A stretch of 32,874 bases of DNA from a virus: IMG/VR virus record IMGVR_UViG_3300000553_000177; one strand, given 5' to 3'. How positions within the stretch are numbered: position 1 is the first letter of the stretch; the number at the start of each line of letters is the position of its first letter. The position numbers and the translations under genes are program-made. Positions 197 to 27,093 of the stretch are shown here, piece by piece. The notes under the pieces are model-generated. The model was not told the origin of the DNA. It saw only the letters and a list, made by a program, of their open reading frames with translations, and searched no databases.

Positions 197-562
197 TTAC
201 AGATTATACTTGTCAGATACCCGGGAATAATTTCGGTTAGCATTTTTTAACATCTTAAACTCATCCAATGCACTCTCAAAATTATCAAAAATACCCTTAA
301 CCTTAATATACTTGATTAAAGCAGATTCAAAATAAACCTTATTATTATAATCAAAACCCTTAACAAAATAATATTTACTATGTCCACACCATCCATTCCA
401 ACCGGCTACACAATATACATCATCAAATTTACCAAAATATAAATTATTATTATAGTAAAATTCGAATATAACAAACTTACCTATTAAAGACCGAAAATAT
501 TCCATCAACTTTTCATCCACTTCATCCACAAATTCATCAAAATTTTCCTTTATATACATCAT
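197..562 (-). CDS. family A small protein (121 aa), MMYIKENFDEF...SDKYNL
   Basis: ORF track; conserved N-terminal and C-terminal family motifs; ATGA overlap with the upstream gene at 559-562. Confidence 0.6.
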   Translation of the reverse strand: MMYIKENFDEFVDEVDEKLMEYFRSLIGKFVIFEFYYNNNLYFGKFDDVYCVAGWNGWCGHSKYYFVKGFDYNNKVYFESALIKYIKVKGIFDNFESALDEFKMLKNANRNYSRVSDKYNL

Positions 563-888
563 AAATTGTATTTTTTTACATCTAAAAGAATTTGTAAAAA
601 TTCCCTAACTTCTTCCAAATCATTAGAAGAATATACAAGATCAAACCTATTATCTTTTATATAATCATTAATATACTCAGAATCATGCGTTACACTACCA
701 CCATTATAAGAATCATCATTAGTATCAATTTGATAACCTTTCAAATTTTTCCAAATAATACACTTAAAATGATCACCACCAATATAACGATAAATCTCAT
801 AATAACCTTCTAATCTATTATATATAAGATGAAATTTCACTTGATTATCAATCAAACCTAACTCTTCATATAACTTTAAATACTTCAT
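559..888 (-). CDS. family A small protein (109 aa), MKYLKLYEE...KKYNL
   Basis: ORF track; junction GCAAAAAAATACAATTTATGAAGTATTTAAAG upstream. Confidence 0.65.
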   Translation of the reverse strand: MKYLKLYEELGLIDNQVKFHLIYNRLEGYYEIYRYIGGDHFKCIIWKNLKGYQIDTNDDSYNGGSVTHDSEYINDYIKDNRFDLVYSSNDLEEVREFLQILLDVKKYNL

Positions 889-968
889 AAATTGTATTTT
901 TTTGCAGTTAAAATTAATTCACACCTTTCTATTAGTTTATCAAGATCCTTATATTTTATAAAATATAC
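885..968 (-). pseudogene. C-terminal remnant of a family A gene (...DKLIERCELILTAKKYNL*) with no start codon; a collapsed cassette
   Basis: manual translation of the minus strand; the AKKYNL+TGA overlaps the ATG of the 559..888 gene; an in-frame TAG lies about 27 codons upstream. Confidence 0.35.
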
Positions 969-1044
969 TCTACCATTTACTTCATCCCTCTCTTTGTGAG
1001 ATAAAGGTTTAATAATATCTTCTTCAAAAATTTTAGCAATATTG

Positions 1045-1323
1045 TTAATAATAAAAATATTCTTGTAAAAAACTACTAAAATCCTTTTCCCAATAATCTA
1101 AACAATTCTCTAATTGAAATATAGCCTGTCTAGGATATTTATCCTTTCCATAAGATATATAAAAACATATCCTTGATGTATTATCGATATTCTCTATACC
1201 ATAATTATCTCCTATATCATAATGATATCCTTTTACGTCTTTATACGCATCATTTAATACCAAAACCAATTCGTTAAACTTATTCTGATAATTTATACTT
1301 TCATATAATTTTAAATACTTCAT
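1045..1323 (-). CDS. family A small protein (92 aa), MKYLKLYESI...
   Basis: ORF track; N-terminal motif; ATGA overlap at 1320-1323. Confidence 0.55.
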   Translation of the reverse strand: MKYLKLYESINYQNKFNELVLVLNDAYKDVKGYHYDIGDNYGIENIDNTSRICFYISYGKDKYPRQAIFQLENCLDYWEKDFSSFLQEYFYY

Positions 1324-1703
1324 AAATTATATTTTTTTGCTTCCTCTTTCATTCTACATTCTTCTTCCTCCTCAGCAGTCAATACTATTATACCCTTATA
1401 TTCATAGCCTAAAATTTCAAATGACTTAACATTACCAGAAAATGTCCAAGAATATTTATCATCCCTAATACCCAATTCATTATTATCAATAGATATAACC
1501 GCTTCAGTTATATTTATATTCATATTCTGTAATAAATTCTCATATTGATCAATAAATTTTTTTTGCCTAACCTTCGGCATACCTATTTTATCCAACTTCG
1601 CAATAATAAATGTTATAGATGGCTTTAATATTATCTCCCAACAAACTCCTATCGGATTATAATAACTAACCTCAAATGTTTTAATATATTTCAAAGTTCT
1701 CAT
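1320..1703 (-). CDS. family A small protein (127 aa), MRTLKYIKTFE...AKKYNL
   Basis: ORF track; motifs; ATGA overlaps on both sides. Confidence 0.65.
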   Translation of the reverse strand: MRTLKYIKTFEVSYYNPIGVCWEIILKPSITFIIAKLDKIGMPKVRQKKFIDQYENLLQNMNINITEAVISIDNNELGIRDDKYSWTFSGNVKSFEILGYEYKGIIVLTAEEEEECRMKEEAKKYNL

Positions 1704-2014
1704 AAATTGTACTTTTTTGCATCATCCACCAACTCCCGAATAAAATTGTTTGCAAACATATAACAAATTTTACCATCATTATCAATAACAGAAATTATAT
1801 CATGTTCATAGTCAACCTCATCCTTCACAATACTACTATTGTTGTACACATGAAGTACTACATACTTCTTTCCAGTAGTTAATCTATCCCACCTCATATG
1901 AAAACCATCAATTAAATTAAAAATAACAATATCACCAGACCTAATACCGTAATAATTACTATTGTTATTGTCCATCATACTCTCAAATCTCTTAACATAT
2001 TTCATGTGTTTCAT
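1700..2014 (-). CDS. family A small protein (104 aa), MKHMKYVKRFE...AKKYNL; the first gene of array 1
   Basis: ORF track; motifs. Confidence 0.65.
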   Translation of the reverse strand: MKHMKYVKRFESMMDNNNSNYYGIRSGDIVIFNLIDGFHMRWDRLTTGKKYVVLHVYNNSSIVKDEVDYEHDIISVIDNDGKICYMFANNFIRELVDDAKKYNL

Positions 2015-2029
2015 ATTCTATATATAAAT

Positions 2030-2330
2030 TTTTTTAATATAAAAAAACTCCCTGATTTTTTTCAAAATTTTTCCCCAAAAAAAAATTTTGATTTTAAATA
2101 TATACAAAAATCACTATTTATAAAATCTACCGGATTTTTCCCCAAAAAAAAAATTTGATTTTCATATTTTAAGAATTGTGGCCACGCATAGGAAGTATTG
2201 GAAAATTTCCAAAAAAAATTGAATATTTGAGTTGGAAGTGAATATTAGAAGGGTGAATGTTGGAAGAACGGCAAAATTTTCATGACCCCACCATACATAC
2301 ATACATACATATGTACACCTATGCTCTCGG
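2030..2330. repeat. repeat-rich upstream region of array 1: two direct repeats of about 28 bp of TTTTCCCCAAAAAAAAATTTGATTTT (2068-2095 and 2136-2164) and a (CATA)6 microsatellite (2292-2316)
   Basis: read directly from the sequence. Confidence 0.7.
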
Positions 2331-2484
2331 ACACTTCTCACCAGGATTTAACAAGAATTTTCCTGACTCAATGAAGGTTGTAAAAGTTTATAAAAAAATT
2401 TAGGAAAGTTGGTGAGCTAACTCACCTTAGGTCTTCAGCCAGAAAAAATTATAATTCTGGCCAATCTTAATTAATATATAATCT

Positions 2485-2781
2485 ATGCCTATCTATAAAC
2501 CACCCAGAATAAGACATACACCATATGGTATATCACTATCACCAGTATCATTAGATAACTTTAAATACCTGGTGGGTATGAATGTTAATGAGATATTATT
2601 ATTTGATGATGGTACAGATGAGCATTTAGAACAAGGTCGTACTATATTACCAAGACATTATTTTATATTCGTAGGTAATAAAGATGGTGAAATGCAATTC
2701 AAACCCTATGAACCCAATCAGTATCGCATAGTAGTAAATATCTATCAAGATATTATTACAATGATAGAGTCTATTGGTTAA
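2485..2781 (+). CDS. hypothetical protein (98 aa)
   Basis: ORF track; no recognisable domain. Confidence 0.4.
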   Translation: MPIYKPPRIRHTPYGISLSPVSLDNFKYLVGMNVNEILLFDDGTDEHLEQGRTILPRHYFIFVGNKDGEMQFKPYEPNQYRIVVNIYQDIITMIESIG

Positions 2782-2945
2782 ATTTCTTTCTAATGAGATA
2801 GTATAGGAATGAATTGAATGCTATTAATATCAATATACCACCTACTATTATATAGTTAGGTTGTCCTATTACTAATGTTCCTGCAGTATATCCTGATACT
2901 GCACACCAGATATAATATGCTATTAGTCCTGTCTTACTCATATGA

Positions 2946-3203
2946 TTAGTCCTCCTTTTTAATATTATTTAACTTCTTCTTGTGTACATACTTTTCTATG
3001 AACCCTATGGGCATCTTATCTAAAAACTTATGCCATTCTTCTTCTTCTTCGTGTTTTATTTGTTGTTTTCTTATGTACTTCTTAATGAACCGTTTCACCA
3101 TCCGTAACTCCTCCCCAATTTCATCTTCCAAATGAACATATTTTAATGAAATCATCCTTCTTCGTATATATAACTTGTCCCGTTGGCTGTCGGGCGCAAG
3201 CAT
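2946..3203 (-). CDS. hypothetical charged protein (85 aa)
   Basis: ORF track; K/E-rich; no recognisable domain. Confidence 0.3.
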   Translation of the reverse strand: MLAPDSQRDKLYIRRRMISLKYVHLEDEIGEELRMVKRFIKKYIRKQQIKHEEEEEWHKFLDKMPIGFIEKYVHKKKLNNIKKED

Positions 3204-3255
3204 TCATAAATTTCCTTTCATAAATTAATTAATATAATAACATATTTAAAATTAA

Positions 3256-3295
3256 AAAAGCCACTCAAAATTATTCATATTGGGTGGCTTTTTCC
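3256..3295. terminator. hairpin AGCCAC...GTGGCT followed by TTTTT; on the minus strand it is followed by a TTTTTTAATTTT run, so it reads as a terminator in both orientations
   Basis: 6-bp GC-containing stem, loop of about 19 nt, T-run. Confidence 0.4.
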
Positions 3296-3299
3296 AGAC

Positions 3300-3850
3300 T
3301 TACGTAAGTCTTAACTTACATAGTTGGGTCAAAGGGTTATGACCATTTTTACGAACTTCCAAGACTTAATAACTCCCACTGATGTAAGTTTCGTATGAAG
3401 TTGAAGGTGCTTCCAAACCAAGGGTTATGTGTTATCCTCTAAACAGATTTACTTTATTTGAGGTCTGTAAATCATACCTACAGAATATCATCTGCATGAA
3501 ACTCTCCTTTTATGGTAGAAAAAAGAGTAAGAAAACCTTAAGTGTTTCACGTTTCACTCTTAATAACGGATATCTTATTTAAGCTAATCTTCACCAGCCA
3601 ATCCAATATTGGATTCCAATAAAGGATTTATAAGGTTCAGTTATCTGTCTGGTAGATAACGCCCTGCCTATCTCTCGCGGTTAGACATCCTACTTTATTG
3701 ATAAAGTCTTTTAGTTGACTGCCAATTCTTTTTTAGGCGAACTGGATTCAAACCTCAAGTTAAGATTCACGTTTTCTTTCCGTCGAAATATATACGTTAT
3801 TAAGATGAATAATTTAACTTATGATAAATATAGTCCCGATTTTAAAAAAG
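3300..3850. other. ORF-free island of about 550 bp with visibly higher GC than its flanks; candidate structured ncRNA or a decayed gene
   Basis: no ORF of 60 aa or more in any frame; stops in all frames; local palindromes (GACTTACGTAAGTC at 3296-3309); repeated AAGGGTTATG. Confidence 0.25.
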
Positions 3851-3852
3851 GT

Positions 3853-4188
3853 TTAAGAATTTTTTGAAAATTTATCCGAAATTAGATTATAACATAATCC
3901 ACAAATAAAACCTTCAATAATTTCTAATGCCGCTTTATTTATATCAATTAAATTAAATAATAAAGTTATTATTAACATTAAAAAAATAGTAATGCCCATA
4001 CTAATAAAAAAAATACTTAATTTTAAATCAGGTATTTCTTTATTATAATAAATTTTTAATGCCGTCAAGAATACTGAAATAGTAATCCATCCATTAAAAA
4101 AGGATAAATTAAAACCAGTAAGGTTTTGTAATCCTGATATAATCAAAAATGATACAAATGACCATAATAAACTTTTAACAATTTTCAT
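3853..4188 (-). CDS. small integral membrane protein (111 aa, about 3 TM segments)
   Basis: ORF track; hydrophobic segments. Confidence 0.5.
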   Translation of the reverse strand: MKIVKSLLWSFVSFLIISGLQNLTGFNLSFFNGWITISVFLTALKIYYNKEIPDLKLSIFFISMGITIFLMLIITLLFNLIDINKAALEIIEGFICGLCYNLISDKFSKNS

Positions 4189-4194
4189 AGGATT

Positions 4195-4752
4195 TTAATA
4201 TTTAATTCTTAATTCTTCTGGTTTTAAACCAAACTTATCAGCAATTTCTTGTATTGATAATTCAGTTATTACTGATTTTTTAGGTTCATTAATATCTACT
4301 GCATATTTCCAGGTTGCAAGCGTAGTTGAATTAGGTATTTCAGAAATATAATAAGTTCTATCATTATAATTAAATTCACCTATTACATTTCTTTCTAAGT
4401 ATGGTATTGTTTCATTGTATGGTATTGTTTCACCTGCTTTTTCATCCGTCCTAGTCCAATCACTAACTAACATTTGTTTAGGATAAATATTATACTTATA
4501 CATATCTTCAACACTTAAAACCAACACTGGTACACTATTGTCTTTAAAATATTTATAATCGTAGCAATTAAACAAACCATTAATGTTGCCATAATAATAA
4601 TTATTATCACCAGCAACCTTGGAATTTAATCCAAATTTTTTACCAACATCAACACCTTTATCTTTAAACCATTGCACAATTTTCTTACCATCTTCAGGAT
4701 AATGTGATTTAACTACTAAATTATTGAGATTTTTATTTTTTTGAATTTCCAT
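4195..4752 (-). CDS. hypothetical protein (185 aa)
   Basis: ORF track; long ORF in AT-rich DNA. Confidence 0.55.
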   Translation of the reverse strand: MEIQKNKNLNNLVVKSHYPEDGKKIVQWFKDKGVDVGKKFGLNSKVAGDNNYYYGNINGLFNCYDYKYFKDNSVPVLVLSVEDMYKYNIYPKQMLVSDWTRTDEKAGETIPYNETIPYLERNVIGEFNYNDRTYYISEIPNSTTLATWKYAVDINEPKKSVITELSIQEIADKFGLKPEELRIKY

Positions 4753-4950
4753 AAATTAATCTTGTTAAGTTTACATATTATTATATGCATTTTTAAATTG
4801 TTTATAACCCTTTAATTTAATTCCATACGAATTAGCAATACGCTTCACAATGTATAAAACTACTAACACTCCGAAAATAATCATAATCGTCATCATAAAA
4901 ACTCCTTTTACCTTATTTCTACAAATATACAAATTTATTTTGAATTAAAA

Positions 4951-4983
4951 AAATAAAAGGTCAGGGGAAAAAACACTATTTCC
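4951..4983. repeat. copy 1 of a 33-bp direct repeat, AAATAAAAGGTCAGGGGAAAAAACACTATTTCC
   Basis: near-identical copy at 5128-5160. Confidence 0.5.
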
Positions 4984-5050
4984 TTAACCTACCATCATCC
5001 ATTATGGTGTGTGTCCACATATAGATTTATTAATTAGTTAAGATTATTTA

Positions 5051-5088
5051 AAATAAAAAGAGTAGTCTTGATTAAGCTACTCTTTTTG
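5051..5088. terminator. bidirectional intrinsic terminator: AAGAGTAG-loop-CTACTCTT flanked by A-runs and T-runs
   Basis: 8-bp stem with T-run downstream on both strands. Confidence 0.55.
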
Positions 5089-5127
5089 ACACTTTATAAA
5101 TTAAGTGAAATTTATAAGGTATAATTT

Positions 5128-5160
5128 TAAATAAAAGGTCGGGGTAAAAATCACTTTTTT
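5128..5160. repeat. copy 2 of the 33-bp direct repeat, AAATAAAAGGTCGGGGTAAAAATCACTTTTTTA, immediately 3' of the lipoprotein gene
   Basis: matches 4951-4983 at about 28 of 33 positions. Confidence 0.5.
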
Positions 5161-5518
5161 ACTTATGAGGTCTATTAGGTTTTAAAGGATTTTTGGATTT
5201 AACTGTAAAAGTGTTGGTTGATTTTGTATAGAATACTTGTACTCCACCTTGATCACCGGCATTAACATTTACATAAACATCATCAAGATATCCATAACCT
5301 TCAACATAAATAGTAGCATAACCACCACCAGCATCAACAGTAAAACTTGGGCTACCGAAAGGATTAGCACTCATATTATAACCATTCCAATTTACATCTA
5401 CATAATAATTCACACTATTATCAATATAAAATGTGCCTTGTGGTTTTTTACAACCAGTAAATAATATAAGTGTCATTGCAATAAATAATACACTTACTAA
5501 AGTAATTAGTTTTCTCAT
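5159..5518 (-). CDS. lipoprotein (119 aa): signal peptide, then lipobox LFTGC
   Basis: N-terminal MRKLITLVSVLFIAMTLILFTGC; type II signal peptide with a Cys-containing lipobox. Confidence 0.6.
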   Translation of the reverse strand: MRKLITLVSVLFIAMTLILFTGCKKPQGTFYIDNSVNYYVDVNWNGYNMSANPFGSPSFTVDAGGGYATIYVEGYGYLDDVYVNVNAGDQGGVQVFYTKSTNTFTVKSKNPLKPNRPHK

Positions 5519-5640
5519 AATTTTGAATTTTTTTTTAGATTTATCTATAATATATAATATTGAATATTATAATAATAGTTTTAATTATTTCTGGGAGTTC
5601 CTTATTTAGAATAATTCTAAATAAGAAAAATAAGCATTAA

Positions 5641-5668
5641 AAAACCCTCCTAATAGAGGGTTTTTTAA
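5641..5668. terminator. intrinsic terminator: CCCTC-CTAATA-GAGGG followed by TTTTTT
   Basis: hairpin plus T-run directly after the 3' end of gene 5672..5896; A-run on the other side. Confidence 0.7.
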
Positions 5669-5671
5669 TTT

Positions 5672-5896
5672 TTAAGTTTGATTTCCTTTTTTAATTAACA
5701 TAATTATTAGTGCGACAATAGCTGCAAAATCAAAAAAATATAAGCCAGTGATATCAACTGGTACACCTGTTGATCGTTCAGATATTCCAACAATTACACC
5801 AATAAAAAATGCGATACCAATAGGTAGTAAAGCTGTCCATTTCCATCCATTGCGCCAAGCAAAAATGGTTAATACAATTTCAATTAAAAATAACAT
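5672..5896 (-). CDS. small membrane protein (74 aa, 2 TM segments)
   Basis: ORF track; hydrophobic; a terminator follows. Confidence 0.55.
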   Translation of the reverse strand: MLFLIEIVLTIFAWRNGWKWTALLPIGIAFFIGVIVGISERSTGVPVDITGLYFFDFAAIVALIIMLIKKGNQT

Positions 5897-5944
5897 AAGA
5901 AAGAAGTTTATAAGGTTTATAATTTATAAATATATTAATAAATA

Positions 5945-6142
5945 TTAATTTAGTTTATTTTTTATTTTTATATATGTTCCATTAATGATAATAAGCAATC
6001 CAAAAATTGAAATACTATATATGATACAATCACACCAATATTCAAAATTACTTGGTGTTGCTGTTCTCCAATCAAAATATATAGTCTCAATAATGCTCAG
6101 TATGAACGCAATCAACATTATGAAAAATCCAATTCTTATCAT
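5945..6142 (-). CDS. small membrane protein; start revised to the internal Met (MIRIGFFIML...), giving about 65 aa
   Basis: the N-terminal extension of the 5945..6265 ORF is a translation of the 11-bp tandem repeats (QRFPNAFQTLSKRFP), which is unlikely to be coding. Confidence 0.4.
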   Translation of the reverse strand: MIRIGFFIMLIAFILSIIETIYFDWRTATPSNFEYWCDCIIYSISIFGLLIIINGTYIKIKNKLN

Positions 6143-6184
6143 ATTACAAATATAAAAATACTTTTTTTTATAAAAAAAAGTGAT

Positions 6185-6228
6185 TGGAAAGCGTTTGGAA
6201 AGTGTTTGGAAAGCGTTTGGAAAGCGTT
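6185..6228. repeat. four tandem 11-bp repeats, TGGAAAGCGTT x4 (one unit has C>T)
   Basis: read directly; the period is one helical turn. Confidence 0.85.
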
Positions 6229-6289
6229 GATATGAGAGCAATTGAGGATGGTATTTTAGAATCATAAATATTTTCCCATACCACTGTCA

Positions 6290-6480
6290 GCCATCCAAGG
6301 TTCCCTGGAAGCCTTTGTTTATATACTGTTTAAAAACCCCTCCATTTTTCTCCACTTTTCTCCATTTTTTCTTCAAATTTAGGTTAATTTCGCCACAATT
6401 TGGTAAGATTTTTTGTTATATTTTTGCCGTTTAAGAAGGAATACGATTTAATGTTTCATATCGGTTCATATCGGATTGTT
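6290..6480. repeat. cluster of short tandem duplications: TTCTCCAYTTTT x3, TTCATATCGG x2, ATTGTTCCTA x2
   Basis: read directly; intergenic. Confidence 0.6.
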
Positions 6481-6532
6481 CCTAATTGTTCCTAAGGTTC
6501 AGAGGTTATCGTTTCACGAAATCTGTGATTAC

Positions 6533-6856
6533 TCACAGATTATATTTTTTTGTCATTTTATACAATTCAAGTTCTTCTGGTGTTGGTATAGTTAGTTCTG
6601 ATTCTTCATGTTTTGTATTTGGTGGATCGATATCGAGTATATATACTGGTATTGGTGTTACATTCAATGTAATTATAAATGTTTGTTTAATTATTTCGCC
6701 TATATTATCTGTTTGTATTAATTTAACTATTTGGCCTTCTTTATAATTGAATTTTAATATATTATAAGGATACATTTCACTTTTTGAAGGAATTTTAACA
6801 GTTTTAGGTTTAAAGAAGTCGGTTAAGAAATTTTCATATTGTTTTATATGGTACAT
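6533..6856 (-). CDS. family A small protein (107 aa), MYHIKQYENF...TKKYNL; the last gene of array 2. A hairpin overlaps its stop codon
   Basis: ORF track; motifs; hairpin TCTGTGA-TTAC-TCACAGA at 6523-6540. Confidence 0.6.
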   Translation of the reverse strand: MYHIKQYENFLTDFFKPKTVKIPSKSEMYPYNILKFNYKEGQIVKLIQTDNIGEIIKQTFIITLNVTPIPVYILDIDPPNTKHEESELTIPTPEELELYKMTKKYNL

Positions 6857-6857
6857 A

Positions 6858-7151
6858 TTATAGATTGTATTTTGACATATTATCTGCTATTTCTTTAACT
6901 TTCACTTTTGCTTCTTTATATGTATAGATTGGAATGTTATATGTTTGTGCTTTTTTTTCTTTGAGTGTACCTTGTCCTTTATATTGAACTATGAGCATAT
7001 TTGTTTTTTTATTAAGTGTAGAGTGTTTGAAACCATTTTCTTCCATGAATGAGAAGAATTCGGCTTTAGTCGAGAAGGTTGGTTTTGGTGCTCCTGAGCA
7101 TTCGAATGTATAGTGGTCTTCAAAGTCTTCGAATAATTTTAAGTGTTTCAT
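6858..7151 (-). CDS. family A small protein (97 aa), MKHLKLFEDF...MSKYNL
   Basis: ORF track; motifs. Confidence 0.65.
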   Translation of the reverse strand: MKHLKLFEDFEDHYTFECSGAPKPTFSTKAEFFSFMEENGFKHSTLNKKTNMLIVQYKGQGTLKEKKAQTYNIPIYTYKEAKVKVKEIADNMSKYNL

Positions 7152-7211
7152 ATTGGTAATTATTTTTTATATGCGTCTTTAATAGATGCGTCTTTAATTT
7201 ATAGGTTATCG

Positions 7212-7303
7212 TTACAGATTATATTTTGATGCTATTATTTTAGCTTCTAAATTTTTTTCAAATAACTTGTATCGTTAGATTCGTATATTTTAATATATTT
7301 CAT
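7212..7303 (-). pseudogene. collapsed family A cassette: an 18-codon minigene MKYIKIYESNDTSYLKKI* followed by an orphan ...ASKYNL* end motif
   Basis: manual translation; the ATGA overlap with gene 7300..7626 is retained and the middle of the cassette is deleted. Confidence 0.45.
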
Positions 7304-15706: not shown

Positions 15707-17077
15707 TTAAAGATTATATTTCTCAGAATCAATAAGATAATCATATTCATCTTCAATTTTAGGATTAAGAATATTGTGAGTACACAAAAATTTAAATTTT
15801 GTTGTCATAGGACTTTTATAATCATCCTTATCAAATCCATAAATATCTTTTTCTATGAACCATTGTTGAAATTCAAATGATTTGAACCATTGTAAAGTAT
15901 TATTATTCAATTCAATAGCAAGTCCAAAAAGGGTATATCTGCTTCTATCATAATCTAATTGAACTGTAAATTCACCTACAAAATCCGATAATTCTTTTTT
16001 CTTTTTGATTAATTCTAAATTATCAATTACAATCAATTTTGGAAAGATTTCATCAGGAGAATTAATATAATTTGTACAAACATTACTTACTATACTATTA
16101 ACTTCTTCAAAGTTACCTAGATTTTTATATTTTAAATCACCATATTCAAATTCATAAGAAAATTCATCAGAATCATAGATATTTTCTAATAAATCTTTGA
16201 AAGTTTTAACTTTCAAATTATGTTTTTTTATATAATCTATAATTTCTTGATAATTAAATGATAATTCTAAATTTTTCTTTGCATCATTACTATTTTCAAC
16301 ACTAAAAGGCAAAAGTTCAATTATTTGTTCGGCTGCTTTTTCAACTGCTCTTTCATTCTCCATTTCTATTTCACTCTTAATGTCTTTCAAATCTTCTTTC
16401 AATCCTAATTTTAAAAATAGTTCATAAATAGAACCTTCTTCTTCTGGATCTATATCAAAATCAAATGTTTCACCCAATATTTTAACTTCACTAAGTGTAT
16501 TGCCAGATAAATATGATTGAATATAATCATATTCATTATCATCCATTTCGTATGTATAATTATTATAATAGGATGAAATTTGCAACAAATAATTAATTAT
16601 ACCTTCTTCTATATTCATCATATTTTCTAAATCTCTAGAATTTATTAGAATAGTAAAATCAGATTCATTAAGAAAGTTACGATCATAATATTTGTATTTA
16701 ATCTCATAATCATCTTTATCCAATCCAATATAGTCTAAAACTTTTTCATAATTATCTTCAGTAATAGTAGATAAAATAACATCTAGATTTTCGGTCTGTT
16801 CTTCGACACTTTCATCAATAGGATTGTTCTTTAGATATTCTGCTTGTTTTAATTTTTTGAAATTCAAATCTTTAAATTTATGATTCTTTTGATTAATAGT
16901 TTTAATAATTTCAGAACGATTTTTCATATTTCGTTCGTCTGGCAATCTTTTTTTTAAAGCTTTAAGACCTTTTTGTAATACTTGTAAACTCTTATCAATA
17001 TTCTTTTTAATCTTAAAAGGCTTATGAGAATTTATTTTTATCGGAGTAAAATTTTCGTATGTTTTTATATATTTCAT
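15707..17077 (-). CDS. large family A member (456 aa), MKYIKTYENF...DSEKYNL
   Basis: ORF track; family termini enclosing a long acidic, repeat-poor body. Confidence 0.6.
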   Translation of the reverse strand: MKYIKTYENFTPIKINSHKPFKIKKNIDKSLQVLQKGLKALKKRLPDERNMKNRSEIIKTINQKNHKFKDLNFKKLKQAEYLKNNPIDESVEEQTENLDVILSTITEDNYEKVLDYIGLDKDDYEIKYKYYDRNFLNESDFTILINSRDLENMMNIEEGIINYLLQISSYYNNYTYEMDDNEYDYIQSYLSGNTLSEVKILGETFDFDIDPEEEGSIYELFLKLGLKEDLKDIKSEIEMENERAVEKAAEQIIELLPFSVENSNDAKKNLELSFNYQEIIDYIKKHNLKVKTFKDLLENIYDSDEFSYEFEYGDLKYKNLGNFEEVNSIVSNVCTNYINSPDEIFPKLIVIDNLELIKKKKELSDFVGEFTVQLDYDRSRYTLFGLAIELNNNTLQWFKSFEFQQWFIEKDIYGFDKDDYKSPMTTKFKFLCTHNILNPKIEDEYDYLIDSEKYNL

Positions 17078-17101
17078 TAAGATTAATCATTTTTACAATT
17101 A

Positions 17102-17530
17102 TCACAGATTATATTTTTCTGCATTCATATATAATTCTAATTCTTCTGATGTTAAATTTGGATATTTTAAATATAAATGATATGCTAAAAGTGCATCTTC
17201 TCTATTGTCTGTACTATATAGAAGGCCTTCGCTCATATATCTTTTCCAAAATGACAAACTCACTATATTACCATAATATTCATCATAATCTTTTTTACCC
17301 GTAAAAAAATCTTTAAAAGAATCCATACCTTTACTTGAATTTATTATTATTCTATATAAGATATACAGCGGGTGTTCTTTCAAAAAGTTAGGATTGAGCA
17401 TTATAACAGCTAATTTATAAGATTTATTTTCAAAATAATTTTTAATTCTCCACAAATAATATTTTTTATCAATATTAACTTTTTTGTATTTTGATTCAAA
17501 CAATAGTTCATATCTTTTTATAAATTTCAT
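17102..17530 (-). CDS. family A protein (142 aa), MKFIKRYELL...AEKYNL
   Basis: ORF track; motifs; ATGA overlap at 17527-17530. Confidence 0.6.
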   Translation of the reverse strand: MKFIKRYELLFESKYKKVNIDKKYYLWRIKNYFENKSYKLAVIMLNPNFLKEHPLYILYRIIINSSKGMDSFKDFFTGKKDYDEYYGNIVSLSFWKRYMSEGLLYSTDNREDALLAYHLYLKYPNLTSEELELYMNAEKYNL

Positions 17531-17772
17531 TCTTTACTTTTTAATTTGTGATGTACATAAGTTTTAATATGTTTATATATTGGTTTTGAATGAGTTAAAT
17601 CTATTCCATAATTATTGAAAATAAAATGAATAATAAATTCGATAACATGATCTTCTGTTATAGTTTTATGTGTTTTTTCAATATGTTTTAATGCTTTACG
17701 GAATGATTTTTTAATAATATTCCAATCAAAATTCATTAAACTTTCATTATATTTAGCATATTTAGTTATCAT
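17527..17772 (-). CDS. small protein (81 aa) starting MITKYAKYNESLMNFDW; a degenerate junction is embedded in-frame (apparent fusion)
   Basis: GCTAAATATAATGAAAGTTTAATGAA resembles the family A junction. Confidence 0.45.
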   Translation of the reverse strand: MITKYAKYNESLMNFDWNIIKKSFRKALKHIEKTHKTITEDHVIEFIIHFIFNNYGIDLTHSKPIYKHIKTYVHHKLKSKE

Positions 17773-18005
17773 AAATTATATTTTTTTACATCTCTTGAAA
17801 AATCTAATCTTTTTTTCAATTTTTTTAATTTTTCAATGATTTTTTCAATATCAATTTTTTCTAATGGAACTTTGCCGAAACCACTTATAGCCATATCTAA
17901 TATTATCATTTGTTCTCTAACTTTAGATGATAGTTTTTGAGTGATTTCATCATGCTCACTTCTATTAGATGGTTTAAATTTTTCATTGAATCTTTCTATT
18001 TTCAT
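17769..18005 (-). CDS. family A small protein (78 aa), MKIERFNEKF...VKKYNL
   Basis: ORF track; motifs. Confidence 0.6.
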   Translation of the reverse strand: MKIERFNEKFKPSNRSEHDEITQKLSSKVREQMIILDMAISGFGKVPLEKIDIEKIIEKLKKLKKRLDFSRDVKKYNL

Positions 18006-18232
18006 AAATTATATTTTTTTGCCTCCAAACGATTTTTTAATTCTTTCAATTTCTCTATTAAATTATCAATCTTATTGGAAGAAAGTTCATTTTCATCAAT
18101 ATTGAAATCTATTATAATATCTACCATATAAATATCCATTAAAATTATATCTGTTCTAATTTCATTTGCTAATTTTTGTAAATCTAAATCAAAATGAATT
18201 TCTGATTCATTAAATTTCCTAATTTTCATCAT
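18002..18232 (-). CDS. family A small protein (76 aa), MMKIRKFNESE...AKKYNL; a paralog of 17769..18005
   Basis: ORF track; shared ...IEKLKELKNRL / IEKLKKLKKRL segment. Confidence 0.6.
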   Translation of the reverse strand: MMKIRKFNESEIHFDLDLQKLANEIRTDIILMDIYMVDIIIDFNIDENELSSNKIDNLIEKLKELKNRLEAKKYNL

Positions 18233-18564
18233 AGATTATATTTTTTTGCATCTACTTCGTACTCTTCTATAAAATATCCAGAATCTAAACCTATAAAATG
18301 ATTATCATCCGTTAAAACTACAAAACATCTACCTGAAAGCATTACACCAGTTTCAAATTCAGCATACAACCTATATAATTTACCTTTAGTTAATTCCTTA
18401 GGTGCATCGTCATTACAATAAACATTTCTTAAAAACTTATCATTTTCAAGATTGAAAGGATTAAATTTTGTTTTAAGCCTAATTTGTTGCATAGATAGTC
18501 CTCTTGGACTTCTTTTAGATGATATTGCCTCATTTAAATTTTCATAATCAATCAAATGTTTCAT
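18229..18564 (-). CDS. family A small protein (111 aa), MKHLIDYENL...AKKYNL; the first gene of array 3
   Basis: ORF track; motifs. Confidence 0.6.
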   Translation of the reverse strand: MKHLIDYENLNEAISSKRSPRGLSMQQIRLKTKFNPFNLENDKFLRNVYCNDDAPKELTKGKLYRLYAEFETGVMLSGRCFVVLTDDNHFIGLDSGYFIEEYEVDAKKYNL

Positions 18565-18652: not shown

Positions 18653-19087
18653 ATGAATAAAAATAAGTATAACCTCTTTATAGACGACGAGCGTTTTCCG
18701 AACAAAGATGTTCCGGCAAGTGATAGTGTTTTTCACCTTACAGGTGATAATAAATATCGAGATTTAAAATGGATAATTGTTAGAAATTTTGGAGATTTCG
18801 TTAAAATTATTGAAGAAAGAGGTTTACCGTTGAGGTGCTCGATGGACCATGATTTAAATGATTTTCATTATTATCATTATCAGACTTATACAGTATATAC
18901 AGGAAAAATTGATTATACAGTTGTTGAAGGTACAGGACTTGAATGTGCTAAATGGCTCATTAACTATTTGATGGATAATGATTTAGATGCACCCGAAATT
19001 TTGATACATACTCAAAATACCGTTGGTGCTGAGAATATAAGAATGTTATTTAACGATTATGAAAAATCAAGAATTATTACATTATAA
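18653..19087 (+). CDS. hypothetical protein (144 aa) whose N-terminus, MNKNKYNLFIDDE, carries a KYNL/junction-like sequence in plus orientation
   Basis: ORF track; AAAAATAAGTATAACCTCTTTATAGAC resembles the junction. Confidence 0.5.
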   Translation: MNKNKYNLFIDDERFPNKDVPASDSVFHLTGDNKYRDLKWIIVRNFGDFVKIIEERGLPLRCSMDHDLNDFHYYHYQTYTVYTGKIDYTVVEGTGLECAKWLINYLMDNDLDAPEILIHTQNTVGAENIRMLFNDYEKSRIITL

Positions 19088-19373
19088 AAATTTTTATATT
19101 GGTGATTATTTTATTATAATCACAACTCCTGGTATATGGAATAGTTCAATGAATAATAATTGTCCACTAAATAGTAATATATCTTATCCTTATAAAGGAA
19201 GAATTAAAAATATATTGGCAAGTCAAGTGTATGGAAAAGTAATAATAGGAATGACAGAAGGTATATATGGATGGTCTTTAAGTTATTTAGTAGGAAAAGG
19301 TTTAATTATTCATGATGTAATAAAACAAAGAAAAGTAAAATTAATGAAAATAAAACAAGATTATGAAAAATAA
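19059..19373 (+). CDS. family B small protein, tail KQRKVKLMKIKQDYEK (the likely start is the internal Met near 19149)
   Basis: ORF track; the 5' end overlaps the previous gene. Confidence 0.45.
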   Translation: MKNQELLHYKNFYIGDYFIIITTPGIWNSSMNNNCPLNSNISYPYKGRIKNILASQVYGKVIIGMTEGIYGWSLSYLVGKGLIIHDVIKQRKVKLMKIKQDYEK

Positions 19374-19437
19374 AGACATGTTAGGTGAAATTGGTGATAA
19401 ATAATTTGTTGGAATATTAATAAAAATCAAAAATAAA

Positions 19438-20061
19438 ATGAAAATTCGTTGTGGATTCGTTAGTAATAGTAGCAGCAGTTCATTTATCATAAATGCTATT
19501 GATGGTTTTTCAACCGTAAAAAATGTTGCTGAATATATTATGGATAATGTTAGTTATAAAAGCTATATAACTGAACGAAAAACTTTAGAAAGTATTGATC
19601 CTGATACACCAGTTCATTTCAACGTTGGTGGTGAAGAAACTTATATACGTAAAGTTGATAATAAAATAGTCATAGTAACAACACAAAATATTACTTTTAA
19701 TTTATTTCATGAAAAATGTCTTGATAAAAAAGACTTAACAGAAGATTTTTATAGACAATTTGATTTTATTGAATCAGATGAAGATTATCCTCTTGAAGAA
19801 GGTGAGGAATATGAAATAATTAAAATGGATGATCCTAGAAACTTTACATATTTCTATGGTAAATTTGATGATTTTAATATATTGAAATATAATATTCTTG
19901 GTAAACATACATACTTACAGAAGGGTTGTCCCAGATGCAAAACATCATTTGCATCTGGTTGGAGACTAAAAGGTGGGAGAAGAATTTGTGATTGTCAAGT
20001 ACAAAAATATAAAGACAGAATAACTAGGAAAGAAAAAATAATGAAAATCAATGAAAAATAG
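19438..20061 (+). CDS. family B protein (207 aa), MKIRCGFVSNSSSSSFI..., tail RKEKIMKINEK; a paralog of the next gene
   Basis: ORF track; N-terminus shared with 20051. Confidence 0.55.
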   Translation: MKIRCGFVSNSSSSSFIINAIDGFSTVKNVAEYIMDNVSYKSYITERKTLESIDPDTPVHFNVGGEETYIRKVDNKIVIVTTQNITFNLFHEKCLDKKDLTEDFYRQFDFIESDEDYPLEEGEEYEIIKMDDPRNFTYFYGKFDDFNILKYNILGKHTYLQKGCPRCKTSFASGWRLKGGRRICDCQVQKYKDRITRKEKIMKINEK

Positions 20062-20650
20062 AATAGGATTTGTAAGTAATTCATCTTCAAGTAGTTTTAT
20101 TGTTTTAAAAGATGCAATAACTGGTAAGCAAAAGGATATGATAGTAAATTTTTCAGAGTGGGCTAAATTTTTTATAGCACTTGATGAAGAAAAGAATTAT
20201 AAAGATGCTAAGGAATATGCAACTGAAATGGAATTATATCAAAGTGATGAATATTCAGAACAAAGTAACACTAGATTAAAATATAAATTTGAATATTATG
20301 ATGATGGATATTGGCATTTTGAAGAAACTGATGATTATATTTTTGGTGCAACCACAATGGACAATTTTGGAATGGACGAATATTTTAATTATATTAAAAT
20401 TGATCCTGATTATGTAAGATGGGATGAAGGTTGGAATGATGATCCATCACAAAAAGATCTTGAATTTATCAAAAATAAAAAACAAAGGTATCGTAAATAT
20501 AAATCGCGGTTGCAATTACTGGTGGTGAAGCTCGGTATGTCCTTAACAAGGAAACTGGTGAGATTACACTATTTGTTGGTCCAAAAATGTTTATTCCAGA
20601 TCCTCGCAAAGAAGTTATTGTTAAGAGGGTACTTGATGAGAAATCAGTAA
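20051..20650 (+). CDS. paralog of 19438 (MKNRIGFVSNSSSSSFIV...). The 3' ~150 nt of this ORF runs out of frame across the MVP fragment, so it is probably chimeric or disrupted
   Basis: ORF track; a second reading frame over 20503-20748 encodes an MVP repeat. Confidence 0.4.
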   Translation: MKNRIGFVSNSSSSSFIVLKDAITGKQKDMIVNFSEWAKFFIALDEEKNYKDAKEYATEMELYQSDEYSEQSNTRLKYKFEYYDDGYWHFEETDDYIFGATTMDNFGMDEYFNYIKIDPDYVRWDEGWNDDPSQKDLEFIKNKKQRYRKYKSRLQLLVVKLGMSLTRKLVRLHYLLVQKCLFQILAKKLLLRGYLMRNQ

Positions 20651-20748
20651 AATTATGGTTTCCTGATAGTATTGATGCAGCACAGCACAATAAACAATTA
20701 GAATCTGAAATGAATCTAAATGGAATGCTAGTGTATGTCCATTATTAA
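20503..20748 (+). pseudogene. isolated fragment of an MVP N-terminal repeat (81 codons, no start)
   Basis: ITGGEARYVLNKETGEITLFVGPKMFIPDPRKEVIVKRV matches the MVP repeat [27 protein letters not shown]; locally elevated GC. Confidence 0.5.
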
Positions 20749-20769
20749 TAAAAACAAGGTTAATTCTTT

Positions 20770-21054
20770 ATGAAAGATAATTATATAGTATGTTGTAAGA
20801 ATGTTGATGAATCGGTAAAGATTCATAAGTTTTTATTTTTGAATGGTATATATTGGAGGGATACAAGGGATGTTATTAGGAGTGGTACTAGATGGTTATG
20901 GTTAAGGATAAGTCAGGGACAAATACAAGCGTGTGGTGAGTCTTACAGATATTTAGATGGTTATTATGAGCATATTAATATATGTGATTACACATTTATA
21001 ACGGTAGATAAGTTAATGAGAAAATTAAAATTGCAGAGATTAAATGAGATATGA
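20770..21054 (+). CDS. family B small protein (94 aa), MKDNYIVCCKNVDES..., tail MRKLKLQRLNEI
   Basis: ORF track. Confidence 0.55.
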   Translation: MKDNYIVCCKNVDESVKIHKFLFLNGIYWRDTRDVIRSGTRWLWLRISQGQIQACGESYRYLDGYYEHINICDYTFITVDKLMRKLKLQRLNEI

Positions 21055-21374
21055 AGATAGATGTGAAGATTGGTGAGTTAGACAAGATGGCATATGATTT
21101 ATATGTTGATGCGACAATGAGAGCGAATAAAATATTATGTAAGAAGAACAAGTTGATATATGTCAAAGTTGATTTAATAACTGTTTTAAAGAAAGGTGAA
21201 TACTATGATATTACTTATCCAGTTGAAAGATTAGTTTGTGTAAGGTATGGTCCAGGTAAGCATGATATAATGTTATTTAATGACGGTTATTATGGTTATG
21301 AATCTATTTGGGAATATTTTTATACGGTAAAGGAATCAAGGAGAATGAAATTAAAAAGATTGTTGTTGATATGA
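21051..21374 (+). CDS. family B small protein (107 aa), tail ESRRMKLKRLLLI
   Basis: ORF track; ATGA overlap. Confidence 0.55.
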   Translation: MKIDVKIGELDKMAYDLYVDATMRANKILCKKNKLIYVKVDLITVLKKGEYYDITYPVERLVCVRYGPGKHDIMLFNDGYYGYESIWEYFYTVKESRRMKLKRLLLI

Positions 21375-21595
21375 TAAGAAAAGGACAAAAGGTTGTATTT
21401 GTGAGCACTATATTATCTCCCAGTTTGAGAGATATGATGCATTTAACTTATGATAAGGTTTATACGGTTACTACTGATTTTATTGAGGGGAACAATAATT
21501 ATTTACATCTTATTGATGATGCTCACCAAGATGTGGATTTTCTATTGATACATATAAATTTGAAAGATTATCAGAGTTTAGAAGAAAGAAATTAG
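21371..21595 (+). CDS. small protein (MIRKGQKVVFVS...). The start is taken at the ATGA overlap with the previous gene. The RRKKLEKLN tail is reached only after a frame change near 21575, so a frameshift or pseudogene is possible
   Basis: manual reading: AGAAGAAAGAAATTAGAAAAATTGAAT encodes RRKKLEKLN in another frame just before the next ATG. Confidence 0.35.
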   Translation: MIRKGQKVVFVSTILSPSLRDMMHLTYDKVYTVTTDFIEGNNNYLHLIDDAHQDVDFLLIHINLKDYQSLEERN

Positions 21596-21610
21596 AAAAA
21601 TTGAATTGTT

Positions 21611-22030
21611 ATGAACATATTTGAAAAGTTAAATGTTCCTGAGAACACTAATGGATTTATTAATAAGCAAGTGATATGTATAAAGGATAAGAAATTTATA
21701 TATGCACAGGTTAATAGTGAAAAGAAACCTTATAGATTAGTAAGGTGGAGATTTCTTGTTGGTAAAGAAAGTTTTATAAAGGATACTAGGAGATATAGAA
21801 TTGGTTCACTTATGAGGTGTTATGAACATAGTGCTATAAAGAGATTTATTAATAGATGTAGGAGAATATATTCTAATAAACTTGTATCAGATTATCCTTG
21901 GAAATGTGATATAATTGATAATAAAGGTCGGTTTATCATAATGAATTGTGAGAAAGCGTTAAAATATTTTCGAGTTGTTGATTTACAAGATATTAGGCAA
22001 AAGAAATTATTAAACTTGAAATCATTATAG
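21611..22030 (+). CDS. family B protein (139 aa), tail IRQKKLLNLKSL; its 3' end overlaps the 3' end of a convergent family A gene by 6 nt
   Basis: ORF track. Confidence 0.55.
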   Translation: MNIFEKLNVPENTNGFINKQVICIKDKKFIYAQVNSEKKPYRLVRWRFLVGKESFIKDTRRYRIGSLMRCYEHSAIKRFINRCRRIYSNKLVSDYPWKCDIIDNKGRFIIMNCEKALKYFRVVDLQDIRQKKLLNLKSL

Positions 22031-22330
22031 ATTATATTTTGTTGCATTGAGTTCTAATTCATATTCTTCTATTTCATCTTCATGTAGTTTTCTTTCTATT
22101 TGGTCATGTCTACACCATAGAGTTAGACCTTTACTAAATTGAACTGCGTAAGGTACATTACTATAATCATTATAAATTATTTTAGCACTTCTAGAATCTT
22201 CGAAAGATTTTAAAAATTCTCTCTTTATTAACACATAATCATCTACTTTATAATTAATAATATCTAGAAATTCTGGGTTCTCGTCATACCACCCTGCGGG
22301 AGATTCGTACATTTTTAAGTGTTTCATCAT
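22025..22330 (-). CDS. family A small protein (101 aa), MMKHLKMYESP...ATKYNL
   Basis: ORF track. Confidence 0.6.
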   Translation of the reverse strand: MMKHLKMYESPAGWYDENPEFLDIINYKVDDYVLIKREFLKSFEDSRSAKIIYNDYSNVPYAVQFSKGLTLWCRHDQIERKLHEDEIEEYELELNATKYNL

Positions 22331-22644
22331 AGATTATATTTTTTTGCATCTATTTTTATTTGTAATTCATCTAGAAGATCTTGAATATCATCTGATTGCA
22401 TAACAATATTATTTAATAAATTTTTTTCATCACAAGGTTGTGTTTCTTCATCATTATATTCATTTATAAGAACTAACCATGGTGTAAGAGTATATCTTTT
22501 TGCTATATAGTATTCTTTTTTATCATGTGCTGTAATTTCCCATATATAATACCAATACCATATAGTATCTTGTCCTATACTTTCTTCAAGTAGGAATTGT
22601 TTAGGCTTTATCTTCAGTTTCTCAAATAATTTAATATGTTTCAT
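22327..22644 (-). CDS. family A small protein (105 aa), MKHIKLFEKL...AKKYNL
   Basis: ORF track. Confidence 0.6.
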   Translation of the reverse strand: MKHIKLFEKLKIKPKQFLLEESIGQDTIWYWYYIWEITAHDKKEYYIAKRYTLTPWLVLINEYNDEETQPCDEKNLLNNIVMQSDDIQDLLDELQIKIDAKKYNL

Positions 22645-23501: not shown

Positions 23502-23588
23502 AGGTTATATTTTTTTCTGTGGTATGCTGTGGTATAAAGTTCATAAATATATTTCTTACTTCGGTTGCTGGTTTTATATTTGTGAAAA

Positions 23589-24029: not shown

Positions 24030-24030
24030 A

Positions 24031-24318: not shown

Positions 24319-24320
24319 TG

Positions 24321-24728: not shown

Positions 24729-24765
24729 TCATTTATATATAAAATTTTTATTTTAGGAAAAAGAG

Positions 24766-27090: not shown

Positions 27091-27093
27091 AAT

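Follow-up and report, generated by a model that had tools for sequence, protein, structure and literature searches.

The virus genome fragment considered here, IMG/VR record IMGVR_UViG_3300000553_000177, was analysed as one stretch of 32,874 nucleotides (the window). It has a G+C content of 26% and short, tightly packed open reading frames (ORFs). On its minus strand lie four tandem arrays of small genes, termed family A, whose products carry short conserved peptides at the two ends, called here the N-tag and the C-tag, around bodies of very different sequence. An earlier note, made from the sequence alone, held that the junctions between these genes are conserved at the nucleotide level, not just in protein, and that they act as recombination handles. 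The comparisons described below indicate that what is conserved is the two peptide tags, and that the DNA encoding them provides homology for cassette exchange incidentally.

The N-tag has about 8-10 residues and reads M-K-[YH]-[IL]-K-x-[FY]-E or, in a variant form, MITxFKIFE. Across tagged ORFs its positions are conserved at 100% (M), 90% (K), 94% ([YH]), 98% ([IL]), 91% (K), 99% ([YF]) and 95% (E), with one free position before the aromatic residue. The C-tag is longer than the six residues given in the earlier note. It comprises about 13 residues, [DE]-h-E-h-x-h-[DN]-A-x-K-Y-N-L, is predicted to be helical, and finishes in a near-invariant KYNL at the carboxyl end (K 98%, Y 99%, N 100%, L 88%). 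In the window, KYN[LIMV]-stop occurs 31 times in the six-frame translation (30 of them on the minus strand) compared with 0.41 in shuffled sequence, the strict N-tag MK[YH][IL]K.[FY]E occurs 13 times compared with none, and a 20-nt junction pattern matches eight times compared with 0.09 expected.

All four arrays and the two singletons that the earlier note had placed on the minus strand were recovered at the same positions from the ORFs and their translations. Array 1, the exemplar (197-2014), consists of genes 1700-2014, 1320-1703, 885-1323, 559-888 and 197-562. Array 2 (6533-8573) contains 8283-8573, 7969-8272, 7660-7962, 7300-7626, 6858-7151 and 6533-6856, with a remnant at 7212-7299. Array 3 (15707-18564) is made up of 18229-18564, 18002-18232, 17769-18005, 17527-17772, which has neither tag, 17102-17530 and 15707-17077. 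Array 4 (22025-24728) comprises 24321-24728, 24031-24318, 23589-24029, 22641-23009, 22327-22644 and 22025-22330, together with a remnant (23498-23602) and a frameshifted ankyrin cassette (23006-23501), all on the minus strand. The singleton at 25460-25783 has both tags and that at 30807-31154 only the N-tag; both are on the minus strand. An isolated C-tag remnant, TDAKKYNL-stop, lies at 15274-15300 (minus strand), and a borderline member at 11445-11849 (minus strand) ends in RKYNV and has no N-tag.

The window thus holds about 26 family members. There are 21 intact ones with both tags and, beyond these, three frameshifted members, one with the N-tag only, one partial gene on the plus strand, one embedded untagged gene and several dead remnants. 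Variant N-tags occur in 17769-18005, 18002-18232 and 197-562. The statement that every gene carries both tags was therefore too strong. The frameshifts, one each in 885-1323 (read as 1045-1323 plus 885-1097), 7969-8272 (a 1-nt shift within the N-tag) and 23006-23501, include at least one within a T-run, and these three members could be pseudogenes or assembly errors. The partial plus-strand gene (2-196) is the 3' part of a family A gene that ends MLKYNL-stop and has a full-length copy in a related contig (L037; the contigs and records compared are labelled L003-L095, L011 being LR756500 and L095 being LR756501). It meets array 1 tail to tail, so that at 180-215 (…AAATATAATCTATAA|TTACAGATTATACTT…) the KYNL-stop codons of the two convergent genes form an 8-bp inverted repeat.

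Family A extends far beyond this fragment. The 0.57 Mb of loci that were fetched contain 262 unique ORFs with both tags and another 225 that end in KYNL behind other N-termini, most commonly MIT[QKNE]FKIFE. In related contigs there are runs of 27-45 consecutive small genes, nearly all of them tagged where the DNA is readable. A search of related genomes, as the earlier note had proposed, located the exact 26-nt junction pattern in 75 metagenome contigs and eight IMG/VR contigs, and gave no match in 185,579 species genomes. A profile of one body subfamily, the barrel group described below, matched 3,155 clusters at E<=1e-3 and 792 at E<=1e-10 among 1.84 billion representatives. By contrast with this abundance, about 25 family A members searched against Pfam, PHROGs and NCBIfam gave nothing above threshold except for the ankyrin cassette (23214-23501), a tblastn search with one member against 50,697 phage records gave zero matches, and a word-indexed protein search returned only 24 relatives, none usefully named (three just as 'hypothetical protein'). 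Family A is a very large unannotated multigene family of phages of the Mahaphage clade, to which the window is assigned below, and its proteins are mostly 75-170 aa long.

If the junction were maintained as DNA, its silent sites should be unusually constant. Codon choice was examined in 70 non-redundant tagged genes from the window and related contigs, each compared with its own gene bodies. Within the C-tag, Lys is encoded by AAA in 96% of cases (87% in bodies), Tyr by TAC in 21% (10%) and Asn by AAC in 24% (13%), and the final Leu is encoded by TTA, CTA or CTG. Tyr7 of the N-tag is encoded by TAC in 42% of cases (10% in bodies), and at the other N-tag positions tested codon choice was not clearly different from background. 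The sole nucleotide constraint is a Leu codon NTA followed by a TGA stop where the next ATG overlaps (45 of the 70 genes); tagged genes that do not overlap the next one stop mostly at TAA. Across the last five codons of six ortholog pairs (window versus L013 or L017) there are eight synonymous and no non-synonymous differences. Genes at either end of an array and singletons also retain both tags even though there is no junction there, and five overlap junctions folded no better than shuffled sequences (z of -2.1 to +1.3), which gives no sign of a hairpin.

Synonymous codons are at background or more varied, and nucleotide-level conservation of the junction is not supported. Taken together, the codon tests, the eight-to-zero changes between orthologs, the tags that stand without a junction and the unstructured DNA show that the conserved entity is the pair of peptide tags, which are kept by selection on the protein and not on the DNA or RNA. 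The junction is no more than one gene's C-tag set against the N-tag of its neighbour, as a rule through an ATGA stop/start overlap that would couple their translation. The overlap of each TGA stop with the following ATG, as described in the earlier note, holds for about half of the stops (12 ATGA junctions in the window, 45 of 70 genes in the wider set) and not for the rest.

Several other readings of the junction were dropped. Stop-codon recoding into a polyprotein fails, as read-through of the TGA meets a new stop within 2-4 codons, and a -1 frameshift at the A AAA AAA run would meet TAA two codons on. An attC-like structure was set aside since the junction DNA is unstructured, and contingency switching since no simple-sequence contingency tracts are involved. 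A diversity-generating retroelement does not fit either: the window has no reverse transcriptase or template/variable repeat pair, and the bodies are under purifying selection.

The bodies between the tags were said to be mutually unrelated. Different folds are indeed present, but several bodies fall into weak subfamilies when compared alone by BLASTP: 25460 matches 7969 (2e-13), 22641 matches 23589 (1e-8), 22025 matches both 7300 and 24031, and 17769 matches 18002. They are mostly acidic (median isoelectric point, pI, of 5.1), and in six ortholog pairs they are under purifying selection, with ratios of non-synonymous to synonymous change (dN/dS) of 0.10-0.47. Structure prediction, which the earlier note had recommended, suggested a barrel and a BRCT-like fold. 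The AlphaFold model of 7300-7626, built with 12 relatives, has a mean pLDDT (predicted local distance difference test) of 69 and shows a five-stranded barrel followed by a C-terminal helix, with residues 1-10 unpacked and of low confidence. Among PDB structures it came closest to Tudor, chromo, KOW and SH3-like barrels, although no match was significant. The model of 6858-7151 (pLDDT 74) is an alpha/beta fold with a long helix at the end and again a low-confidence N-tag. The top matches in a fold search are all BRCT domains (Dbf4, RFC1, LigA and PARP4; E 5e-3 to 0.1), and Pfam gives BRCT below threshold (E 0.019). A profile of this group against PDB sequences gave only insignificant matches to APOBEC, so the BRCT-like assignment depends on the fold search and the sub-threshold Pfam match.

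Two further bodies add to this variety, the ankyrin-repeat protein at 23214-23501, which is the ankyrin cassette of array 4, and the 456-aa protein at 15707-17077, in which no domain was recognisable. In the huge phage LR756500, five tandem genes (L011 27009-30380, corresponding to about 11706-15077 of the LR756500 record) start with the N-tag, MKYIKEYEEF in four and MKFILEYKVF in the fifth. Four of the five end in another C-tag, NADDFGF[FL]DN-stop, and two of the bodies are leucine-rich repeats. The same N-tag thus occurs with a different C-tag and on several folds, which indicates that it is modular and is placed on unrelated protein-interaction folds.

The arrays differ in content between relatives, as a comparison of strains of the kind suggested in the earlier note revealed. 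L013, a contig from ENA with about 70-80% nucleotide identity, is collinear with the window over 2000-8900. Array 2 has seven cassettes in the window and 21 in L013, the common ones being in the same order. Four of the five indels between the two switch partner inside a junction; the fifth has fused the start of one cassette out of frame to the end of another, leaving the remnant 7212-7299. In array 3, flanks with 84-89% identity to L017 and L018 enclose cassettes that those two contigs lack, carry in duplicate or replace with others. One L017 ORF, of 211 aa, begins like the 456-aa gene (88.6% identity across 280 nt at the 5' end) yet retains a QKYNL terminus. Related pairs of paralogs are adjacent and their copy number varies between relatives, as in a genomic accordion. 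With this turnover at junctions, the arrays are not a stable set of identical content from which exchange is absent.

The most direct trace of such exchange is a perfect 64-nt direct repeat on the minus strand of array 4. One copy (22961-23024) covers C-tag codons, the stop/start and the first 16 codons of the next gene, and the other (23453-23516) supplies the junction and N-tag of the ankyrin cassette. The repeat runs from the KKYNL codons to codon 16 and flanks the cassette, and the sequence to either side of it is unrelated. The repeat is a product of recent recombination or conversion limited to the junction, and it shows a route by which an unrelated domain can gain the tag. Among 478 junctions there are 41 within-contig pairs with exact tracts of 28-65 nt, while the bodies upstream mostly share no more than 7-19 nt. 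The shorter tracts may be explained by the tags together with codon bias; those of 38 nt or more are not easily explained in this way. The idea of junctions as recombination handles thus stands in so far as array content changes with breakpoints in junctions, and fails in so far as the DNA is not conserved beyond the encoded tags. The analogies offered with it fared less well: integron attC sites lack a counterpart, with no integrase in the window and no attC-like hairpin, and nothing resembles the simple-sequence tracts of contingency genes. Given this turnover and the freedom of the silent sites, the better reading of the junction is that selection maintains two protein termini and that the DNA encoding them happens to offer homology for recombination.

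A promoter-like motif (AAAWTTTATATATA) stands 4-9 nt before the ATG at the head of every array in the window, with a weaker version before 18564. On the minus strand, AAAATTTATATATA lies 4 nt upstream of the first ATG of array 1 (2019-2032) and also upstream of array 2 (8582-8595), AAATTTTATATATA lies upstream of array 4 (24734-24747), and the motif precedes the singletons 25460-25783 (at 25790-25805) and 30807-31154 (at 31160-31173). A further site, TT[TA]ATATATA, is at 15674-15687. The motif also heads arrays in L005, L009, L010 and L013. In LR756501 (upstream of 21969, 23913 and 28282) and L024 (upstream of 7352, 3163 and 2513), sites of the same class lie some 20-25 nt ahead of genes that include portal and protease/scaffold, and variants precede an ORF of capsid size. 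In LR756501 and the window the motif lies within 50 nt upstream of 15-23% of ORF starts, compared with about 1% of random windows. By its distribution, the TTTATATATA-class motif may be the phage's own promoter, perhaps a late one. A scan for the sigma-70 consensus gave fewer sites than in shuffled sequence, and no terminator-like sites were found within arrays, where internal genes are linked by ATGA overlaps or very short spacers. These motifs suggest that the arrays are single transcription units with the class of promoter used by head genes and that internal genes are translationally coupled.

Two conserved double hairpins (6510-6541 and 7632-7665, minus strand) start within the codons for the final Leu and the stop of two members of family A. 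Each consists of AATCTGTGA-GTAA-TCACAGATT and a second small stem, with folding z-scores of -3.7 and -5.3, and the genes concerned use the Leu codon CTG, which otherwise makes up 1% in gene bodies. Within array 2 or at its end, these hairpins may serve to terminate transcription or to direct RNA processing.

Several lines of similarity place the fragment among huge phages. An identical contig is present in the JGI freshwater metagenome 3300020724 (Ga0214244_1000099) and in SRA assemblies, and 20 kb of the window gave zero megablast matches to GenBank phages. A 428-aa protein encoded at 13074-14360 (minus strand) resembles the major vault protein, with its shoulder and Vault_3 repeat domains (SPFH-like), and is 47-51% identical to ORFs that two huge phages encode, LR756500 (462 kb) and LR756501/3 (735 kb). 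On L024, a related metagenome contig, family A genes are accompanied by a T4-type portal (Portal_T4, 1.8e-63). This portal has 62% identity with its counterpart in the 735-kb phage, 47-50% with those in the 634-642-kb phages, 38% with that in LR756500 and 32% with those in Lak phages. These huge-phage genomes form the Mahaphage clade, for the largest members of which Bacteroidetes hosts were predicted (PMC7162821). By protein similarity, the window contig belongs to this clade as a fragment of a huge phage with a predicted Bacteroidetes host. In LR756501, no family A gene was found in the first 88 kb sampled. The ATGA overlaps and the operon-like layout fit a phage better than a eukaryotic giant virus.

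We suspect that the tags are address or processing signals common to a repertoire of accessory effector proteins, in which each body would be one of several unrelated interaction-type domains bracketed by an N-tag and a C-tag. The tagged proteins would be incorporated in the prohead, trimmed at Glu by a prohead protease of the T4/phiKZ type, and delivered to the host along with the DNA. The 30-60 bp of similarity in the tag-coding DNA would meanwhile permit unequal or homologous recombination, so that arrays expand, contract and reshuffle. For the account as a whole, in which protein-level tags plausibly serve head incorporation and incidental homology serves cassette gain and loss, we see about an even chance. 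Its broader part, that the tags are protein-level addresses or handles with incidental recombination homology, is in our judgement clearly probable. The head-targeting step, which is argued from analogy, is the specific model that we prefer, although taken by itself it is more likely wrong than right.

The clade has the machinery that such a step would need. Related phages encode a prohead protease (Peptidase_S80, 4.5e-6; S77, 1.2e-4) fused to a scaffold-like region, at L024 144-2513 (789 aa) and L095 (LR756501) 23913-26336. The scaffold region has 11-13 tandem 14-residue repeats, x-Y-S-E-Y-I-A-E-N-L-D-x-x-I, in which Y[IL]AE is a candidate site of the T4-type [IL]-x-E. A gp20-type portal, a gp21-type protease and the scaffold were found in both L024 and LR756501, and L024 has two family A genes in the interval from portal to protease. 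The promoter-like motif common to the arrays and head genes points the same way, as do the precedents in T4 and SPN3US described below. Prohead proteases cleave at [L/I]-x-E in T4 and at [S/A/G]-x-E in phiKZ-like phages. The Glu of the N-tag (E8) is 95% conserved, [IL]-x-E is present in the MITxFKIFE variant, and position P3 of the putative cleavage site is Leu or Ile in about 29% of canonical tags.

A number of observations weigh against head targeting and against parts of the recombination scheme. Thr occupies P3 in 46% of canonical tags, which is at odds with the T4 rule. The window itself has no head genes, and LR756501 has its portal gene right beside its protease gene, without an intervening family A gene, so the placement in L024 may reflect insertion instead of functional linkage. 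Presence in virions is argued for proteins that are known here from genes alone, and the late-promoter role of TTTATATATA solely from its occurrence before head genes. The acidic bodies are unlike the basic internal proteins of T4, a load of 27-45 different cargo proteins per run would lack precedent, and the strictly terminal, near-invariant KYNL has no counterpart in T4. As for turnover, survivorship would to some extent favour indels that end at gene boundaries, and a BLAST alignment will reach into the tags no matter where crossing-over happened.

The acidity of the bodies and the strictly C-terminal KYNL would be better accommodated if the tags were handles outside the capsid, either a docking or oligomerisation interface for a phage or host hub, or terminal degrons that set effector lifetime. 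In the degron form, a ClpXP- or tail-specific-protease-type system would recognise the free ...KKYNL-COOH plus the N-terminal motif. ClpX is known to recognise C-terminal motifs such as RRKKAI of MuA, and the near-invariance of KYNL suggests that a free carboxyl end is recognised. Acidic bodies fit cytoplasmic effectors or DNA mimics better than DNA-bound internal proteins, the pairing of the N-tag with a different C-tag in LR756500 suggests that the tags act independently, and a second set of 22 genes in the window, family B (described below), has a C-terminal basic motif. We nevertheless consider this explanation, the main alternative, rather unlikely, given the promoter-like motif common to arrays and head genes, the T4-type head protease/scaffold system of the clade, and the direct precedent of giant-phage head paralog families. 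A more general form of the addressing idea is that the bipartite tag marks dozens to hundreds of unrelated small domains (Tudor-like, BRCT-like, ankyrin, leucine-rich repeat) for loading into the giant capsid or another compartment and for delivery to the host. As neighbouring tags abut and overlap, such a code would double as an in-frame, integrase-free system of cassette exchange, in which captured domains are plugged in ready-tagged. We regard a code of this breadth as unlikely.

The remaining explanations place the selected feature elsewhere. The model of the earlier note, taken here in the form that the junction of about 40 bp is itself selected as an attC- or PeSL-like recombination site and the protein ends are a by-product, draws on cassette indels and replacements that end in junctions, the 64-nt perfect repeat around the ankyrin cassette and the junction-limited identity tracts within contigs; PeSL shuffling in T4-like phages also shows that short conserved flanks suffice (PMC4122927). 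The excess conservation of silent sites that it predicts was looked for in the tags and not found, silent sites there being as free or freer, and amino acids are invariant where nucleotides vary. Tags persist where no junction exists, the junction DNA is unstructured, one deletion endpoint is clearly outside a junction, and the sole recombinase in the window, which has no integrase, is a truncated IS607-type serine recombinase beside a putative TnpB. We therefore think this model very unlikely. Equally doubtful, in our estimate, is an ordinary paralogous family that arose by tandem duplication from one ancestor, with ends that belong to a common fold and middles that diverged. The barrel, the alpha/beta BRCT-like fold, the ankyrin cassette and the 456-aa protein are different architectures, the N-tag is unpacked in both AlphaFold2 models, the ankyrin cassette received its N-tag within a 64-nt identical tract, and the same N-tag is found on leucine-rich repeat proteins with another C-tag. 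This is so despite the weak relationship among several bodies and the great size of one beta-barrel subfamily, and although termini are most similar between neighbouring genes and copy number varies like an accordion. An RNA-level signal, in which an A/U-rich junction is optimised for termination-reinitiation in a non-Shine-Dalgarno host and peptide conservation is secondary, would suit the ATGA overlaps at 45 of 70 junctions, the unstructured junction RNA/DNA and the preference of Bacteroidetes, the predicted host phylum, for A-rich, unstructured start regions. However, the tags favour, and do not avoid, synonymous codons that end in G or C (TAC, AAC, CTG), amino-acid identity is conserved and base composition is not, and the C-tag is kept without a following gene and the N-tag without a preceding one. 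This last explanation seems to us extremely improbable.

Among known systems, the address-tag reading has its closest parallel in the internal proteins of phage T4, a diverse anti-defence set that shares only a 10-residue capsid targeting sequence (CTS), with propeptides at both ends in Alt (PMC3012670, PMC9026906). In both cases otherwise unrelated small proteins share an N-terminal tag of about 10 residues that ends in Glu, and related phages have the gp20-type portal and gp21-type prohead protease. The family A tag has no homology to MKTYQEFIAE, however, and family A adds the invariant C-terminal KYNL, is acidic and not basic, and has tens of genes per array compared with few. No homology to the T4 CTS or internal proteins was detected above threshold in Pfam, PHROG or NCBIfam or by tblastn against the 50,697 phage records. 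A second parallel is found in the heads of giant phages. SPN3US has a 20-member head paralog family (its own 'family B'), and its paralogs gp53 and gp54, only 34% identical overall, have identical N-terminal 15-mers in their propeptides (PMC5694885). Such families, including the inner-body proteins of phiKZ, are likewise large tandem paralog sets that differ in number between relatives and have conserved N-termini on diverged bodies, theirs being trimmed at x-x-E by a T4-like protease. They are homologous throughout and have been found in heads by mass spectrometry, whereas family A has bodies of different folds and a second, C-terminal tag, and is known from genes alone.

For the exchange of cassettes, the PeSL (early promoter plus stem-loop) cassettes in hyperplastic regions of T4-like phages mediate modular shuffling (PMC4122927, PMC2839356). 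There, too, short conserved sequences flank small variable ORFs and contain the endpoints of indels and replacements, but PeSLs are intergenic regulatory DNA, whereas the family A repeat is coding, unstructured and conserved only via its peptides. Integrons share with family A arrays of promoterless cassettes, all in one direction, with a promoter at the array head to transcribe them and with content that varies among relatives; family A differs in having no integrase, attI, attC or hairpin sites, and its cassette boundaries lie inside overlapping ORF ends. Plasmodium PEXEL, oomycete RxLR and secretion-system effectors also bear a short, often cleaved terminal address motif and belong to expanded, recombining clusters. 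They are from other kingdoms with other machinery, and the likeness is one of analogy only.

That the architecture matches no system that can be named is partly right. Its exact form was not found described, but its ingredients (CTS tags, head paralogs, shuffling at flanks) are known. We could not find a description of an unannotated family, thousands strong, with N- and C-tags on unrelated folds, tags that abut at ATGA, and arrays of tens of genes. The arrays occur in the largest known phage clade, and the function suggested for family A is drawn by analogy. Most genes of huge phages have no known function, and public data contain thousands of relatives of a single family A subfamily. Should the tags prove to be address signals, a whole class of proteins that probably manipulate the host or counter its defences could be picked out by a simple sequence rule. 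The tags could then also be transferred to other cargo meant for very large capsids, and would explain the growth of these genomes. Comparison between relatives further shows a concrete route by which short conserved coding ends bring about the expansion and contraction of arrays with no dedicated recombinase.

The window also contains family B, defined by a different C-terminus. Its 22 genes share the terminal motif [RK]-[RK]-x-K-[LI]-x-x-[LI], with 0-14 residues after it, compared with 0.3 expected by shuffling. They lie mostly on the plus strand between 9444 and 32367 (for example 14391-14997, 19059-22030, 24781-27599 and 31249-32367), have no common N-terminus, and have more basic bodies (median pI 8.5). 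Of the 94 ORFs of 60 aa or more listed for the window, families A and B together make up about 50.

Leading genes of blocks outside family A are preceded just upstream by TAnnTTTG elements (TATCTTTG, TAAATTTG and TAACTTTG), found upstream of 11353, 11849, 12981, 18653 and 31249 and, for example, within 11347-11407, 11842-11902 and 28060-28120. We take these to resemble the Bacteroidetes -7 promoter element, which would be consistent with the predicted host, and they suggest that the genes they head form a different (early) temporal class from the family A arrays.

Between the arrays lie genes for a stand-alone receiver-domain protein (15311-15667, minus strand), a cREC_REC protein (cyclic-phosphate processing receiver; 18653-19087, plus strand) and a papain-family C1 peptidase (28160-28924, minus strand). 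Two adjacent paralogs (19438-20061 and 20051-20650, plus strand) start with MK(I/N)R.GFVSNSSSSSFI, have an N-terminus that matches phrog_7397 (function unassigned), and recur as a pair in L017. No tRNAs or Rfam families were found in the window.

Mobile elements are present both here and in related contigs. An IS607-like pair (29121-30723, plus strand) consists of a truncated serine-recombinase (resolvase) ORF (29121-29441) and a 431-aa ORF without a Pfam match that is taken, by size and position, to be a putative TnpB/OrfB. Directly beside it lies an orphan C-tag remnant of family A, ...DIEKYNL-stop (29078-29110, minus strand), as if the element had inserted into a family A cassette. In L024 and L056, DUF7487 proteins, which we guess may be homing endonucleases, are inserted beside family A genes. 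In the neighbouring contig L023/L003 of the same family (2647-8771), ClpB-like AAA+ ATPase ORFs are split by intein/LAGLIDADG elements.

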